Shown here piece by piece: positions 6,001 through 50,729 of a stretch of DNA of 64,000 nt. The DNA lies in IMG/VR virus record IMGVR_UViG_3300021400_000447, positions 1 to 64,000 of that record; one strand, 5' to 3'. The first letter of the stretch is position 1. Each line of letters opens with the position of its first letter. Under the pieces are notes generated by a model. It worked only from the letters and a program-made list of their open reading frames with translations, did no database searches and was not told the origin of the DNA. Source of the DNA: a virus. Taxonomy: Duplodnaviria > Caudoviricetes. Both the position numbers and the translations under genes were made by a program.

Positions 6001-9000
6001 CGAATATGAAGTATGGATTAAAGGTCAAGTTTATTCTTTAAATACAGTCGTTATTCAACGTGGTAAAACGTCAGAAGATGCTGATGTTGTTTACAAGTGT
6101 ATTAAAAGTTATAATAATACAGATACGACTGAAATTGATGATGAGGAAGTATTAGTGAAAAATGCTTAGCCTAAAAAAGCAACCGAATATTGGTTAAAGA
6201 TGGGCGAATTAGAAAAGCAAACCGACGCAACTAATACATATTTGTATTTCCCATATTCAGAGAATGACAAAATTGAATTAGATATTAATATTAATAAACA
6301 TGATTCAACTGGAAGCTCTGATTTCATCATGTCTTATGAAGATGGCGTGCCGAGTAAGGCATATCCATATATCTATACTGATGGCGGCGATGCTTTATAT
6401 CATATAGAAAATAATGAATCTACAATTGTTATAGGCTCTCCTGACTGTGATGTTTATATTTATCGTCTTCGTATTTATAATAAAAGCCTTACAACTAATG
6501 AAATTTTAAAGAATTTTATTGCAGATGGTAAAACAATCCAAGAAAAGATTGCACGCTATAATCGTAATTGTATTTATTGGGACGAAGAGCAAGGCAAGTA
6601 TCAGTCTGCTGCTGTTGGCTATGCAAAACTTGATCCTATTAAATTAGCAGAAAGGATTCCAGGTGTAAAAATTTTAATGCTTGATACGCCAAGATTTACA
6701 ACAGGTAAAAAAGACTTTGTAAAAGGCGCGACATTAAGATGCATTGAAGCCACTCTTGATAATAATGGAGATATAGTATATGAAGACTTAAATAACTGGT
6801 TTTTCCAAAATGGATTCCATGCTGGGCAAGGAACCACGTCAGATAACTATGGTTAGTCTGGGCGTAATGTTGATTTCTTATTTATGTGTGATGGTGAACA
6901 TGCACCTACAAAGGTAAAAAACATTAAAGGTGGTAAATAGACTTATGCTGGCTATGTATCCAGTGTGTTAAGAGGAAATAATACGTCAAAATGGGACGCA
7001 GAAAATGAAGTTTGGGTACCGGCAGAGGGCGCAGAACCTGAAGTATGTACAGATTGGAAGGGTGATAGTTGCAAAATTAAACTTACTGAACACTCTGTTC
7101 CGAATAATTATTTTAACTTAAAAGTTAATATTGCTTCTTCAGAAAATGTTAATAATGCTCTATTCCAAAAACGATATAATGATTTTCTTCCATATGAAAC
7201 AATAGCCGCCGCGAATCATAATTATGAAGAAGGCACTAAAATTAAAAATAGTATGGAATTCGTGCCAGCTATTTTATTTATTCGTGAAAACGACCCCACG
7301 GGCGTTACAACAACTGTTGAAGATGGCGTTGAAGTCAATCATTATCCAACACATACTGAATTTGATGATACAAAGTGGCACTTCTATGCACTTGGAAATC
7401 TTGGTGACTCTAAAAAGACAGACTACACCCGCGCATACGATCCAAACGATCCATATGAGTTTACTGTTGAAAATTCTGATAACAGCACTGCGAATGGTCA
7501 ATTCCAATCTGGTGTATATATGAATAATGGCGTTGAAACAGTTGAAACGAATGTTAGTACAATAAATCCAATTAATTTTATTTATCCTATCTCATCTGAA
7601 CAGTGGAATGCAATGCGCCAACCAACTGAATAGGAAGCAGAGATTCATGCCAATCCTGGTGAAGATGATACAGATGTGGTAATGAGCAATGGAATGGTTT
7701 ATACTAACTACCGTCACCGCGCGCTTTCTTGTGAAGGATTTGACGGCGACCACTCATTTGAATTCCGTTATGCCAGCTGTGGCGATTATCGTGATGGCGA
7801 TTTAATTAATGACACTACTGGTAATGCAAATTAGTAGAATAAAATTAATCGTGCAGTATTTGAAGCATTTTATGAATGGGTGGTTACTTCTACTCCAGAA
7901 CAATTTAGAGATGAATTTGTTGAATGGGCTGTACCAAGTGCAATGGAATTCTTCTATGCCTATACTCATTATTACACTATGATGGATAACCGCGCGAAAA
8001 ATACTTTCTGGCACTTTGCCAAAACCGGAGAATATCATAGAGTTAGTCGTCCAGTACCTCAATTACTTCATATCTATCACGAATTAATTGATGGATAGTA
8101 TACTCCTACTGAGGACACCACTGTTTTAGCACCAACATATTATATAAAAGATTATATTTTAACAACAGATAAGCAATTTGTTTAGGATACAGTCTATTAT
8201 ATAAAAGATTCAAATTATACTCAATATGATGTTTATATACCAGCAACAGTAACTACAAATTAGTTAATTCCAGAAAATACATATTATATTTTTAATAAGT
8301 ATAAATTAACTACGGATGAAGAAGTTAAGGCTGGTATAGATTATTATACATATTCAAATGGTAACTATTATTTAGCCGAAACAAATATTGGAGATCCAAT
8401 TAAATATTATTATACTCAATATGCATTTGATATGTGGGCATATGATATGGACACTGCCGCTGGTATTGACAATAATGGTGTTTTTGCATTTTCTTATGGT
8501 AAGGAAGATACTGATTATCGTAATGAAAATGATTCTAGTTCTGGTTACGCTTTTAATGGGGCGGGATCAATTTTCTGGCGCCGTCTAAGTACTACATTTG
8601 CAGGTCAAATTCGCGACATTATGACTGGCGCGCACGAGAATTGCTTTAATGCTACTCATTTAATAAATGAATTTGACGCGATGCAAAACCAGTATCCAGA
8701 AGAAATATGGCGTTTAGATATTGAGCGTAAATATATTAGAACATTTACTGGCGAATCAATAGATAATTCTATTACAGCCGGTAAATAGAATTCTCGTTTC
8801 TTACGTTCAATGATGCAGGGACGGAAAAAATATCAACGCCGCCAATGGATTAAAGATCAAAGTATTTATTTTGGTAGCAAATATAGACTTTCTAATGTTA
8901 TTGGCAGCGATAACACAATTGAATTTAACTGCACATTACCTAGCGGGAATTAGGAATCATTAGCGCTACCGATTGACTTGAATTTAGAGCTTACTCCATT

Positions 9001-37347: not shown

Positions 37348-37360
37348 AAATATAGACAGT

Positions 37361-37446
37361 GGGGAGGTACCCAAGTGGCCGAAGGGAGCGACCTACTAAG
37401 TCGCCAGCGCCTCACGGCGGCGTGGGTTCGAATCCCACCCTCCCCG
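37361..37446 (+). tRNA. tRNA-Ser(ACT), unusual A34 anticodon
   Basis: Acceptor GGGGAGG/CCTCCCC, G73, long variable arm, anticodon arm GCGAC-CTACTAA-GTCGC, T loop TTCGAAT. Confidence 0.85.
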
Positions 37447-37468
37447 TTGAAAAGAAAGGAGCCATACT

Positions 37469-38134
37469 ATGGAGAAGTACCATAAAATTGAGACGATGTT
37501 TGAGCGCGATACCGAAGGTAAGCATCAGCTTCGTTACGGCGTGTTTCGTGATGAGACTGTTGAATATCTTTCTCACATGGATTGGGAATGGACTGAGAAG
37601 GTCGATGGTACGAACGTTCGTGTACATTGGGACGGCTATCATGTTGAATTTGGTGGCCGCACCGATAATGCACAGATGCCAGTCTTTCTTATGGAAAAGC
37701 TAACGCAAATTTTCAAGACGCCCGCGGCTGAAGAGATGTTTGAGCAGCTTTTTGGAGAAAAAGATGTTATTCTCTTTGGCGAAGGATATGGTAATAGAAT
37801 CCAGAAGGTTGGCTCTTGTTATATTCCTGATGGTGTTGGTTTTATCCTGTTCGATGTGATGATTGGCGGAAACTATCAGCCTCGTGATAGTGTTGTAAAG
37901 ATCGCAGAAGCGTTCTCTATTTCTGTTGTGCCGATTGTTGGGCGTGGAACTCTGTTCGATGCTCTTCGATATGTCGCAACGCATCCTACTTCCATTGTCG
38001 CGCAGAAGGAATGCGGAATGGAAGGCGTTGTTTGCCGACCAATGATTGAGCTTCGTGACCGTTGTGGTAAGCGTGTGATTGTTAAAATTAAGTGGAATGA
38101 TGTAAAGGAGCTAATTGAAAGTGATCAGATTTAA
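37469..38134 (+). CDS. RNA ligase (Rnl2-like nucleotidyltransferase)
   Basis: YHKI, WTEKVDGTN motif I, LFGEGYG, FILFDV, EGVVCRP, VKIK; no TAG. Confidence 0.85.
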   Translation: MEKYHKIETMFERDTEGKHQLRYGVFRDETVEYLSHMDWEWTEKVDGTNVRVHWDGYHVEFGGRTDNAQMPVFLMEKLTQIFKTPAAEEMFEQLFGEKDVILFGEGYGNRIQKVGSCYIPDGVGFILFDVMIGGNYQPRDSVVKIAEAFSISVVPIVGRGTLFDALRYVATHPTSIVAQKECGMEGVVCRPMIELRDRCGKRVIVKIKWNDVKELIESDQI

Positions 38135-40119: not shown

Positions 40120-40384
40120 AGCCCCTTAGTTCAACGGTAGAACACCGGTCTCTAGTCTTAATTTGGAGCTTCATATGGGGACATATGAATGAAAACGCCG
40201 CTAATTCGGAGAAAGCTTAACTGCCAACCCCGAGCAAGGAGAAATCCGTGTGTAGAGACTTTACACGGCGCATCTAGAACAGATGAAGATAAAGTCCGGA
40301 CCACAATGCAAAAGCAATGCGTGTGAAGAAAACCGTTATATCCCTCTGAAGGAGGTAGTCTGGGTTCGAATCCCAGAGGGGCCA
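40120..40384 (+). tRNA. Amber suppressor tRNA (anticodon CTA), intron-split; exons 40120-40153 and 40329-40384
   Basis: D arm GTTC-AACGGTA-GAAC; spliced anticodon arm CCGGT-CTCT|AAA-ACCGT; T arm CTGGG-TTCGAAT-CCCAG; acceptor GCCCCT/AGGGGC with A.C mismatch at 1-72; 23-nt extra arm. Confidence 0.75.
40154..40328 (+). ncRNA. Compact group I intron (~175 nt) between anticodon positions 35 and 36
   Basis: P1 CTCT/GGAG with U.G at splice site; P2 TTCATATG-GGGA-CATATGAA; P3 CGCCG/CGGCG; P7 GAGACT/AGTCC; P8 CATCT/AGATG; J8/7 AAGATA; terminal G; TTT guide can pair 3' exon AAA (P10). Confidence 0.85.
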
Positions 40385-41101: not shown

Positions 41102-41483
41102 CTTCAACCCAAGTAAAACGGGAATTGACTCGTTATAACCAGCCAATTTTAATTGGCGGCCTGATGAACGTTCGACTCGTTCGTTGCTTAAGTCGGTCTG
41201 AGGGCGGAACTGGCATCCGCCGCCTAAATGGAGATACAGGATTGTCACCCTGTCTACTTAAGCAAGTAGTTTAATGGCTAAAACCGTAGGCGACGTGGCG
41301 CGGACACTGGTTTGGGTGAGGTTTCTGCTATGACCAAAAAGACATAAAATATAGCAGCAATGTGTGCTTATGACGGTATTGTTACGTTGCGGAGCAATAC
41401 TTGAGGCTTCATAGCAGTTAGCGTTAATCTGTGCGCAACAGTTAAAAAACGCATTTTGTGTTTATTTCTCTGGAGGAAAATAA

Positions 41484-47912: not shown

Positions 47913-47994
47913 GCCCGAGTGGCGGAATGGCAGACGCGCTTGACTCAAAATCAAGTTCACAAGAGTGTGGGTTCAAGTCCCACCTTGGGCACCA
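47913..47994 (+). tRNA. tRNA-Leu(CAA)
   Basis: CTTGA-CTCAAAA-TCAAG; long variable arm; encoded CCA. Confidence 0.9.
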
Positions 47995-47997
47995 TAT

Positions 47998-48070
47998 GCT
48001 CCATTAGCCCAATGGCAGAGGCGATGCGCTTAGAACGCATACAGTGAGAGTTCGAATCCCATCGAGAGTG
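47998..48070 (+). pseudogene. Degenerate tRNA with TAG (Leu) anticodon and short variable loop
   Basis: Intact D arm and ATGCG-CTTAGAA-CGCAT; T stem and acceptor 3' strand largely unpaired. Confidence 0.6.
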
Positions 48071-48096
48071 CTGTAAAAATATTGAAGGGAAAAGAA

Positions 48097-48573
48097 ATGC
48101 CGACTTTATATATCATTTGCGGCCCTAGTGGTAGCGGGAAATCTACTTGGGCAAAGAACTACATGATTGAACATGATGAACAAGATATTCGTTATGTTTC
48201 GCGCGATGAAATTCGTTATTCAATCGTTCATGATGATGAACCTTATTTTTCTCATGAACGTGAAGTTTTTCGCAAGTTTGTATCTACCATTGTAAACACG
48301 CTAATTGACGGATTTGACGTTATTGCTGATGCAACGCATCTTAATAGTGCTTCCCGCGCGAAGCTAACAAATGCAATCGATGCACGCTATTCTGATTATG
48401 ATATTATTTACGTAGTATTTAATGTTCATATTTCTGAGTGTATTCGGCGTAATGGTCTGCGAGAAGGACGAATGTGTGTGCCTGATGGTGTTATCGATCG
48501 GCAATTCCATGATTTTTACGCTCCTACGCTTGAAGAAGATGTACGAGCGACTCGCATAATTTACGTATATTAA
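48097..48573 (+). CDS. P-loop kinase (polynucleotide-kinase/AAA_33-like)
   Basis: GPSGSGKST, SRDEIR, DATHL, ECIRRN..R...VP..VI. Confidence 0.8.
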   Translation: MPTLYIICGPSGSGKSTWAKNYMIEHDEQDIRYVSRDEIRYSIVHDDEPYFSHEREVFRKFVSTIVNTLIDGFDVIADATHLNSASRAKLTNAIDARYSDYDIIYVVFNVHISECIRRNGLREGRMCVPDGVIDRQFHDFYAPTLEEDVRATRIIYVY

Positions 48574-49168: not shown

Positions 49169-49762
49169 GGAGCATTTTCCTTAATAAATGATTGACCCAA
49201 GTGCAGATGTGCCAACCACACTGCTTGGGCTATCTGAATAACAGCCATACGTTACGGCCCGGGATACTAGGCACACGCGGCCGCCGAAACAGCAATGCTA
49301 GGCGATAGGAAGAAACTTCTAATGTTAAGGATAGGCGCTTAAATATTCGCAATCAAAAGTATTATTCCTCTTGGCCACATAATAGAAAGCTCATTGAATA
49401 GGTGAGCCGAATCCAGATAAGGTGGTAGCTGGTAACTGCTGCAAACTCTGGAATTACCATAAGTGGCTAATGTCGATGAAAGCCAGAAATGGCATATAAA
49501 AGAGGTTTAAAGTAAAAGTAGGCCAATACGACATTAATTGTATGTTAACACATAAGCAAGTATGCTTAATATGATTATTGCTGAATGGTTTGGCTGAAAT
49601 TTCAGGGTAAGCAATCCCTGCTATACATGGCTGTAAAGCGGGTTAAGAAAGTTACGGGGTAGCTCCTTGTGGCTCAGCTCTTAATTCTATAGTGACTGAA
49701 TATGATTGAAGAATATTATAAGTATGGCGAAGGCTGCAATCATTTGTTAAGGAAAATGCTCC
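49169..49762 (+). ncRNA. Large ornate non-coding RNA, 594 nt (ROOL/GOLLD-like candidate)
   Basis: 49169-49194 pairs with 49737-49762 (26 bp, one G.U); nested GCCATAC/GTATGGC; many internal hairpins; no credible ORF. Confidence 0.75.
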
Positions 49763-49784
49763 TAATTTTTATTTAGGTGATTCT

Positions 49785-50729
49785 ATGGCAGAAAACAAAT
49801 TTACCGCGACAGATTTGAAAGAAATGCAATCATAGGATTTGGCATGGAAAATCTAGCGTACTGTTGCGAAATTATTGGAATTTTATAATTATTATGACGG
49901 AAAAGTATATATAAGTTTTTCTGGCGGGAAAGACAGCACTGTTTTACTACATATTGCACGAAGGTTATTTCCTGATATAAAAGCCGTATATTCAGATACC
50001 GGTTTGGAATATCCTGAGATAAAAGAATTTGTAAAAACATGGGATAACGTAGATATAATTCGTCCAAAAAGAACTTTCAGGCAAGTAATAGAATAGTTTG
50101 GATATCCTGTTGTAAGTAAATATGTCGCTGGTTACGTTTCAACCGCGCGAAAACATCCAGAATCAACTCGCGCGCAATATTTACGCGGTGAAATACAATC
50201 CAAAGCGTTCGGCTTTGGAGATGGAAAGTGGGCATATTTAGTAGACGCACCATTCAAGATTAGCGCTTGGTGCTGCGATGTAATGAAAAAATAGCCACTA
50301 CATCAATATCAACGTGAAACTGGCCTGTATCCAATCGTTGGAACGCTCGCAGAAGAATCTATGTCCCGTAGGAATCAATGGTTAAAACAAGGCTGCAATG
50401 TTTTTGATACTAAAGAACCAATTAGTAAGCCTTTGTCATTTTGGACGACAAATGATATTCTCCAATATTTAAAAGAGTTCAATGTGCCCTATTGCCCAAT
50501 ATATGGAGAAATCATAGAAGATAAAAATGGTAAGTTACATACATCTAAACTACGCGCAACTGGTTGCATTTTTTGTATGTTCGGCGCGCACTTAGAAAAA
50601 GAACCAAATCGTTTTTAGCAGTTAAAGATAACCCATCCAAAAATTTGGGAATATTGCTTAAGACCATGGGACAAAGGCGGATTAGGCATGAAAGAAGTGT
50701 TAGAATATTTAAATATCAAATATGAATGA
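49785..50729 (+). CDS. PAPS-reductase-family protein, 5 TAG
   Basis: SFSGGKDSTVL, DTGLEYPEI, CCDVMKK.P, GTLAEES..R, RATGCIFCMFG, RF-Q(TAG)-QLK.THPK. Confidence 0.85.

Follow-up and report, generated by a model that had tools for sequence, protein, structure and literature searches.

We have analysed a stretch of 64,000 nucleotides, referred to below as the window, from an 81-kb IMG/VR virus record (IMGVR_UViG_3300021400_000447; Duplodnaviria, Caudoviricetes; CheckV completeness 46%). Its positions 40120-40384 on the plus strand hold an amber-suppressor tRNA gene (anticodon CUA) that is interrupted by a 175-nt group I intron and that carries, between the anticodon stem and the T arm, a further hairpin of 23 nt. 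A reading made from the letters alone, which we call the sequence-only reading, had described this segment as a second hairpin with a canonical 7-nt anticodon-type loop bearing the Gln triplet CUG. It offered three explanations: an identity element for charging with Gln, an alternative fold, or an evolutionary snapshot. All the features that it listed for 40329-40384 are present as described, and among its three explanations the identity element fits best with the comparative evidence given here.

The gene is laid out on the plus strand as follows. The 5′ exon (40120-40153) is identical in three intron-free viral contigs (L002, L007 and L052) and falls within a match of our model R1 at 40120-40171. 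It comprises the acceptor 5′ strand (40120-40126), a D arm of the class I type with a 4-bp stem and a 7-nt loop (40129-40143), A26 (40144), the 5′ strand of the anticodon stem (40145-40149) and the loop bases C32, U33, C34 and U35 (40150-40153). The intron (40154-40328) lies between U35 and A36. The 3′ exon (40329-40384) opens with A36, A37 and A38 (40329-40331) and continues with the 3′ strand of the anticodon stem, ACCGU (A39 to U43, 40332-40336), in which U43 is mismatched with C27. Then come the extra arm (40337-40359), the T arm (40360-40376), which has a 5-bp stem and the loop UUCGAAU, the acceptor 3′ strand (40377-40383) and the discriminator A73 (40384). The 1:72 position is a mismatch of A (40120) with C (40383), and this and A73 had already been recorded in the sequence-only reading; of the further features expected in a tRNA-Gln, G2:C71 and G10 are present, and 3:70 is C:G. 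The bases after A73 are CAA. No CCA is encoded, so that a CCA-adding enzyme is needed to complete the 3′ end.

In a scan of the window neither ARAGORN nor the Rfam tRNA model reports a tRNA at 40120-40384, because of the intron, while model R1 detects the two halves of the gene as separate matches. The intron-free homologues are called by ARAGORN as tRNA(cta), with the label 'Pyl'. The extra arm and the intron together explain why standard tRNA finders miss or mislabel suppressors of this kind. A search of the record with model R1 found no second suppressor copy, which leaves this gene as the only amber-suppressor tRNA detected in the phage. Phage-encoded decoding of UAG would therefore require splicing. 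When the tRNA island around the gene was compared with GenBank phages, megablast gave no match.

The intron matches RF00028 with 34.1 bits (E 6.5e-7), under the gathering score of 50. A U precedes the 5′ splice site (CUCU-A, with the hyphen at the site) and pairs with a guide G, the last intron base is a G (GAAG), and the guide sequence UUUGGAG occupies nucleotides 10-16 of the intron, near 40163-40169. The intron-free alleles were found by an exact-match scan of viral contigs with a partial 5′ exon as query. They are the closest among the relatives found, and their exons are identical to those of the window through base 72; they have the same 23-nt segment, and they end in G73 followed by CCA, whereas the window copy has A73 followed by CAA. 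Because of this identity the splice junction can be placed at CUCU-AAA, hence the anticodon CUA, and we infer that the window's transcript is spliced to give C34, U35 and A36. Introns occupy the identical site between U35 and A36 in four phage lineages, that of the window and those of L078 (7595-7770, 176 nt), L081 (472-683, 212 nt; RF00028 at 50.5 bits, at the gathering score) and L083 (4376-4672, 297 nt). Judging by these alleles, the intron is an independent, polymorphic insertion.

Introns of the cyanobacterial tRNA-Leu(UAA) and the Azoarcus tRNA-Ile have the same anticodon-loop site, the same U before the 5′ site and 3′ G, and likewise a guide complementary to the loop. The host gene here, in contrast, is a phage suppressor tRNA, and the intron is unusually small (175 nt, against about 205 nt in Azoarcus). 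Its guide is complementary to the ligated anticodon loop CUCUAAA and also, with one G.U pair, to the extra-arm loop CUCUGAA, which could be a cryptic pairing or reverse-splicing site.

The codon that this tRNA would read has a sense meaning in the phage. Two open reading frames, of 3089 amino acids (35 TAG) and 1643 amino acids (21 TAG), appear only once TAG is translated, which neither a sense TGA nor the standard code achieves. A PAPS-reductase gene (49722-50726) with five TAG was aligned by codon with 26 homologous viral loci; its TAG columns contain mainly CAA and CAG, and one of them does so in 24 of 25 homologues. Over all TAG columns Gln is the commonest residue (75 of 239), Leu makes up a small part (12), and Ser and Tyr are at zero. 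Columns of PhoH and PAPS reductase compared at the protein level concur in setting TAG opposite Gln. By these alignments TAG is a sense codon for Gln in this phage. Homologues of an 865-amino-acid protein with 18 TAG were not found, so it was unusable for this purpose. At the homologues' short loci a gain in open reading frames with TAG as sense is clear in 12 of 29, the tRNA islands being mostly in the standard code, and we made no use of this result.

Phage suppressors for TAG read as Gln (genetic code 15) are described by Borges et al. (bioRxiv 10.1101/2021.08.26.457843), Peters et al. (PMC9523058) and Kienbeck et al. (PMC10879173). The CUA suppressors of those gut and rumen phages are the same gene in the same kind of phage, with TAG as Gln and charging by the host presumed. 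How do they obtain Gln from host enzymes? Borges et al. raise this question explicitly. In our material the search for PF00749 (GlnRS/GluRS) was negative for the record of the window and for five large relatives, of which four reach at least 97% completeness, and that for the GatB tail domain was negative for the window's record and for four of the large relatives. With no GlnRS, GluRS or GatB found in these phages, charging must therefore use host enzymes.

The extra arm was compared among homologues that two scans, both leaving this arm unconstrained, had collected. The scan of viral contigs used the anticodon arm alone as its pattern, with U43 not fixed; the scan of metagenomes used the anticodon arm with a T-loop motif at long distance, and there U43 was fixed. 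Together they gave at least 71 distinct long-arm tRNAs with at least 57 distinct arms, and all later counts refer to the matches listed. Across the 71 homologues 92-93% of the cells are paired, 19 of 24 pairs show double changes, and none of 500 shuffles scores as high. Covariation supports a cloverleaf with a 7-bp acceptor stem and D, anticodon and T arms; the T stem is 100% paired, all five of its pairs covary, and the T loop follows UUCRAnY. The acceptor, D and T stems of the long-arm tRNAs are widely diverged. A plain MAFFT alignment (A1) set the shorter arms off by one column and blurred the arm counts. It was superseded by an anchor alignment, in which the arms are lined up ungapped on the invariant UG alone and which serves as an independent check, and by a model-fitted alignment (A3), which leans towards its model.

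In the window the arm consists of a 5′ strand (40337-40343), the 7-nt loop CUCUGAA (40344-40350, with the CUG triplet at 40346-40348), a 3′ strand (40351-40357) and a GU linker (40358-40359), all on the plus strand. Its core is the hairpin UCC-CUCUGAA-GGA (40341-40353), formed by the pairs 40343:40351, 40342:40352 and 40341:40353. In the anchor alignment the loop-closing pair is Watson-Crick in 57 of 57 arms (C-G 53, U-A 4). So is the second pair, which is C-G in 41, A-U in 7, G-C in 5 and U-A in 4, and its mutual information of 1.29 bits is the top value in the region. The third pair is more mixed (U-A 25, C-G 14, A.G 11, U.G 7). In A3 pairing in the 3-bp helix reaches 98.9%, with changes on both sides at each of the three pairs. 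The shorter arms lack one nucleotide on each strand, that is, a paired deletion. Beyond the core lie the pairs A.G (40340:40354), U.G (40339:40355), A-U (40338:40356) and U-A (40337:40357), and the A.G, U.G and A-U pairs outside the Watson-Crick core are conserved.

The loop is conserved in a pattern of its own. At the equivalents of positions 32 to 38 the 57 arms have C50/U7, U53/C4, C46/U11, U57, G57, A50/C5/U2 and A44/C7/U5/G1, which gives the consensus C-U-Y-U-G-A-A. Because U35′ and G36′ are invariant and 34′ is only ever C or U, the triplet is always a Gln anticodon, CUG or UUG, two of the 64 possible triplets. The loop also obeys the anticodon-loop signature Y32-U33-NNN-R37, with U33′ in 53 and A37′ in 50 of the arms. 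Among 49 distinct tRNA-Gln genes that ARAGORN predicts in the same loci the anticodon loops are CUUUGAC (19), CUCUGAC (8), CUUUGAA (5) and CUCUGAA (3). This comparison of covariation and conservation shows the 23-nt segment to be a fifth arm under purifying selection, its loop indistinguishable from a tRNA-Gln anticodon loop. The hairpin of the sequence-only reading is in this respect real. That reading had named, as an outcome that would speak against it, homologues with ordinary arms of the Leu, Ser or Tyr type and no conservation of CTG; what we see in the listed homologues is an invariant YUG. A divergent CUA suppressor in the viral contig 3300001598_001126 (L035), in which 27:43 is paired, has an 18-nt variable region that can be drawn as GC-UUUUGAG-GC, and this may be a second, independent Gln-anticodon-like loop.

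The arm that does the decoding has another likeness. Once the anticodon is masked, the CUA arm has exact counterparts among phage tRNA-Trp arms (mean distance 2.0 over 14 positions), and no tRNA-Gln arm comes closer to it than 4 differences in the 14. It is a tRNA-Trp anticodon arm with C35 changed to U, and the resemblance to Trp seen in the sequence-only reading is supported. Over the whole length the nearest isotype is ambiguous, with best matches in global alignment to Gln (20), Arg (20) and Trp (9). The C27.U43 mismatch is found in all long-arm homologues counted (70 rows; U43 was preset in the metagenome pattern only). In the 71 relatives the 1:72 position is U-A (21), A.C (19), A-U (13), U.U (13) or otherwise weak or mismatched (5), but never G-C, and base 73 is G in 66. 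Genuine phage tRNA-Gln have A-U or U-A at 1:72 and G73 in 39 of 39. tRNA-Trp also has A-U at 1:72 and G73, and Gln cannot be told from Trp on such features. The claim that the body does not obviously match the Gln identity rules is right in part only: the A73 of the window copy is a minority variant, and most of the family has the G73 of genuine tRNA-Gln and none of it a G-C pair at 1:72. The YUG that marks a tRNA-Gln is absent from the decoding arm, which is CUA and of Trp type, and is found in the extra arm only.

Could this simply be the variable arm of a class II tRNA, bound by SerRS, TyrRS or LeuRS, with Ser, Tyr or Leu inserted at UAG as the outcome? The variable region is well over 10 nt long and has a stem-loop (23 nt with a covarying helix); G73 with G2:C71 would fit a tRNA-Ser, and the A73 of the window copy a tRNA-Tyr or tRNA-Leu. 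Yet the D arm is of the class I type, with its 4-bp stem and 7-nt loop, and a SerRS, which reads arm length, has no need of an invariant 7-nt loop with UG at its centre. The TAG columns align with Gln codons, with Ser and Tyr in none and Leu in only 12 of the 239 residues. We regard this explanation as highly improbable. To our knowledge Gln never has a class II tRNA. The known class II tRNAs (Leu, Ser, Tyr and Sec) and the allo-tRNAs (Mukai et al., PMC5389517) likewise have a base-paired arm between the anticodon and T stems, but the class II loop is short and variable, whereas the phage tRNA combines a class I D arm with an invariant loop of 7 nt.

We propose instead, with a probability of about 45%, that the extra arm is a mimic of Gln identity which is read by the charging enzymes of the host. 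After splicing, the Trp-type arm with its CUA would decode UAG, with the YUG hairpin directly after the anticodon stem. The working anticodon has A instead of G at position 36, a position that Gln-charging enzymes read. The extra arm would offer a surrogate YUG loop to the host machinery, either GlnRS or a non-discriminating GluRS followed by GatCAB, and would supply the missing determinants, G36 above all. The acceptor end would add Gln signals of its own through the weak or absent 1:72 pair and G73. The outcome would be a tRNA loaded with Gln, not with Trp, while the ribosome reads CUA.

What favours this proposal is the pattern of conservation. U35 and G36 are the strongest determinants for GlnRS, and position 34 may be C or U; the invariant U35′ and G36′ and the Y34′ of the arm are exactly this pattern. 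GlnRS and GatCAB both favour a weak 1:72 pair. There is also a precedent for the decoding half of the molecule in the E. coli suppressor su+7 (supU), a tRNA-Trp with the anticodon CUA that is mainly charged with Gln. As in the phage tRNA, a Trp-type anticodon arm with C35 changed to U there reads UAG as Gln by way of the Gln-charging enzyme of the host. The differences are that su+7 has a 5-nt variable loop and a dual Gln/Trp identity, while the phage tRNA adds the 23-nt YUG arm, an often mismatched 1:72 position and, in the window copy, an intron. More broadly, and more tentatively, the two anticodon-type arms may split decoding (CUA, at the ribosome) from identity (YUG, at GlnRS or GluRS with GatCAB), possibly after the five-way junction has restacked. 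They would then be the means by which UAG is reassigned to Gln, with host enzymes only, in a large group of gut and rumen phages.

Several observations weigh against such a mimic. One is geometric: when GlnRS or GluRS is bound, the enzyme lies against the inner face of the L-shaped tRNA and the variable region points towards the solvent. An arm placed as in class II tRNAs would stay out of reach of the anticodon-binding domain unless the junction were rearranged. We speculate that surrogate reading would probably need a junction in which the YUG arm, instead of the CUA arm, is stacked under the D stem. If its two outer pairs open, the YUG arm is left with a stem of five pairs, and a 4-nt variable loop, UAGU, follows before the T stem. 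Other points concern details of the tRNA. The mimic mostly has A38′, whereas most genuine phage tRNA-Gln have C38, and the window copy has the minority variant A73, not the G73 typical of Gln. Some CUA suppressors have the same anticodon arm and no extra arm, so the arm is not obligatory.

The remaining objection comes from folding. RNAfold favours a shifted register in which CCUCU pairs with GGAGG around a GAA triloop (the window arm scores -5.0 kcal/mol in it and -1.8 kcal/mol in the anticodon-like register), and this pairs Y34′ and U35′. RNAalifold also chooses three pairs of the shifted register. This register suits most of the sequences because one strand is C-rich and the other G-rich. 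It has no covariation, and in the anchor alignment 13 of the 57 arms have a mismatch at one of its pairs and 16 at another; the covariation therefore requires the anticodon-like register to form. The shifted register may be a competing state. Two candidates for the conserved fold were rejected for mismatches where the anticodon-like register covaries, namely CCUC paired with GAGG, which is still the thermodynamic optimum, and a register with a UGAA tetraloop.

A reading built on these registers is that the hairpin is a two-state gate, closed when CCU pairs with AGG and YUG is partly paired, and open when it is anticodon-like, and that the gate controls charging or use of the tRNA. Nearly all sequences fit both registers; the closed one is the minimum-energy fold, only the open one covaries, and the C at -3/-4 and the G at +7/+8 hardly vary. 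Slipped registers are, however, what one expects by default from a C-rich and a G-rich strand, and the closed register has no compensatory changes to set against its mismatched arms. We consider a gate unlikely, though it would be compatible with the Gln-identity mimic and not exclusive of it.

A more serious rival, if still a doubtful one, is that the arm serves some other partner as a sequence-specific handle, its likeness to a Gln loop being incidental. The partner might be a phage protein or RNA that times the availability of the suppressor, a processing or repair enzyme, or a tertiary contact within the tRNA itself. The conserved non-canonical motif at the base of the arm, UAUA opposite GGUA with its A.G and U.G pairs, is needless for an anticodon mimic, and the G at +7 is invariant in the listed arms. 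The gene also lies within a tRNA island containing an RNA ligase and a kinase, and recoding in phages is thought to be a timing device (Borges et al.). What a handle leaves unexplained is why the triplet should be the anticodon of the very amino acid that TAG encodes, with 34′ limited to the Gln options, and why the whole loop follows Y32-U33-NNN-R37. No candidate partner has been identified.

One may also ask whether the molecule has two decoding heads, UAG being read by the CUA arm and CAA and CAG by a restacked YUG arm on the ribosome. The symmetry of the secondary structure would allow this, given the five-pair YUG stem and the UAGU that follows it when the two outer pairs open. However, that stem contains A.G and U.G, normal tRNA-Gln genes are already present in these phages and their hosts, and such a tRNA has no known precedent. 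We give this reading hardly any weight.

Where did the arm come from? The sequence-only reading suggested that a CUA arm with its intron had been inserted into a tRNA-Gln(CUG), the old anticodon arm staying behind as the extra arm, and this or a recent duplication could have left a neutral relic. The extra loop CUCUGAA and the working loop CUCUAAA differ at position 36 only, and the AGCCCC acceptor stem is shared with some phage tRNA-Gln genes. A relic would nevertheless hardly have kept an invariant UG and a covarying stem in 71 tRNAs that have diverged in their acceptor, D and T stems, and the same persistence speaks against an evolutionary snapshot. The extra stem also has two or three Watson-Crick pairs left, against five in an anticodon stem. 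Joint insertion of arm and intron is not supported, given the intron-free alleles L002, L007 and L052 with their identical exons, and the arm-less relative L004. L004 has the same junction, ACCGU-UAGU, with the hyphen where the extra arm would stand, for which reason insertion of a hairpin into an existing suppressor is the simpler story. We think a neutral relic very unlikely.

The arm keeps close company with the CUA anticodon. In a scan allowing any anticodon in the context of the arm it was seen only with CUA among the matches listed, and the 16-mer of the arm, where it stands in a tRNA context, was likewise confined to CUA suppressors among the matches listed. In bacterial genomes, one per species, the 16-mer had at least 120 matches, which is the chance expectation, and a single one of these lies in a tRNA context. 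It is on a contig (L112) of a Bacillota metagenome-assembled genome, and model R1 was not found in 60 relatives of that genome. GatB is present there and no GlnRS-type anticodon-binding domain was seen, which hints, if weakly, at use of the indirect Gln pathway by some hosts. Three human-gut viral contigs (L010, L031 and L065) have arm-less CUA suppressors with an odd T loop, a mismatched 1:72 and G73. Phage Gln suppressors in general may have a weak 1:72, with the extra arm perhaps a trait of one large subfamily. We also looked for an analogous Trp mimic among UCA (opal) suppressors that share the stem, but the matches were mostly tRNA-Sec and coding sequence.

Hairpins with the loop of a cognate anticodon have been proposed elsewhere as synthetase sites, in the thrS operator of E. 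coli, in the tRNA-like structures of plant viruses and in yeast mRNAs bound by aminoacyl-tRNA synthetases (PMC6542539). Those mimics sit in mRNAs or viral genomes and are mostly regulatory, while the phage mimic would sit in a working tRNA beside a different anticodon. The portions searched of Borges et al., Peters et al. and Kienbeck et al. do not mention a variable arm, an extra arm or an anticodon-like second loop; the only related remark in them is one by Borges et al., that undetected suppressors may have non-canonical structures. We found no description of the arm in the searchable literature on recoded phages, theta ribozymes and anticodon-like triplets, a coverage that excludes most subscription journals, so a prior description is possible. 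A conserved surrogate Gln loop within the suppressor offers a concrete hypothesis for charging with Gln by host enzymes. If it is true, it would be a natural example of identity made independent of the anticodon and moved into the tRNA as a separate module, with relevance to the rules of tRNA identity, the evolution of changes in the genetic code and the engineering of orthogonal suppressor tRNAs.

Other RNA elements and genes were seen around the suppressor. A full-length ROOL RNA (RF03087, 311.8 bits) lies at the edge of the tRNA island (49173-49755, plus strand), and a skipping-rope RNA (RF02924, 38.1 bits, just above the gathering score) lies between tRNA genes (41193-41260, plus strand). 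In L078, whose intron is of the same type as that of the window, a cow-rumen-4 RNA (RF02948, 73 bits, 7110-7174) is found about 390 nt upstream of the suppressor; the Rfam scan of the window gave no match to this family. Within the island an RNA ligase (PF09414) at 37469-38134 and an AAA_33/Zeta-toxin-like kinase at 47965-48573 look like a tRNA repair kit, and ARAGORN reports a tRNA-Ser with the unusual anticodon ACU at 37360-37447. Just 3′ of the suppressor CCA, several relatives (L003, L007, L061 and others) have a conserved trailer of the form GGCGC...CAGCAA...GCGCC. This may be the tRNA-adjacent theta ribozyme of Kienbeck et al. In the window copy the suppressor is followed instead by a promoter-like TTGACT-17-TATAAT, which lies upstream of a tRNA-Asn.

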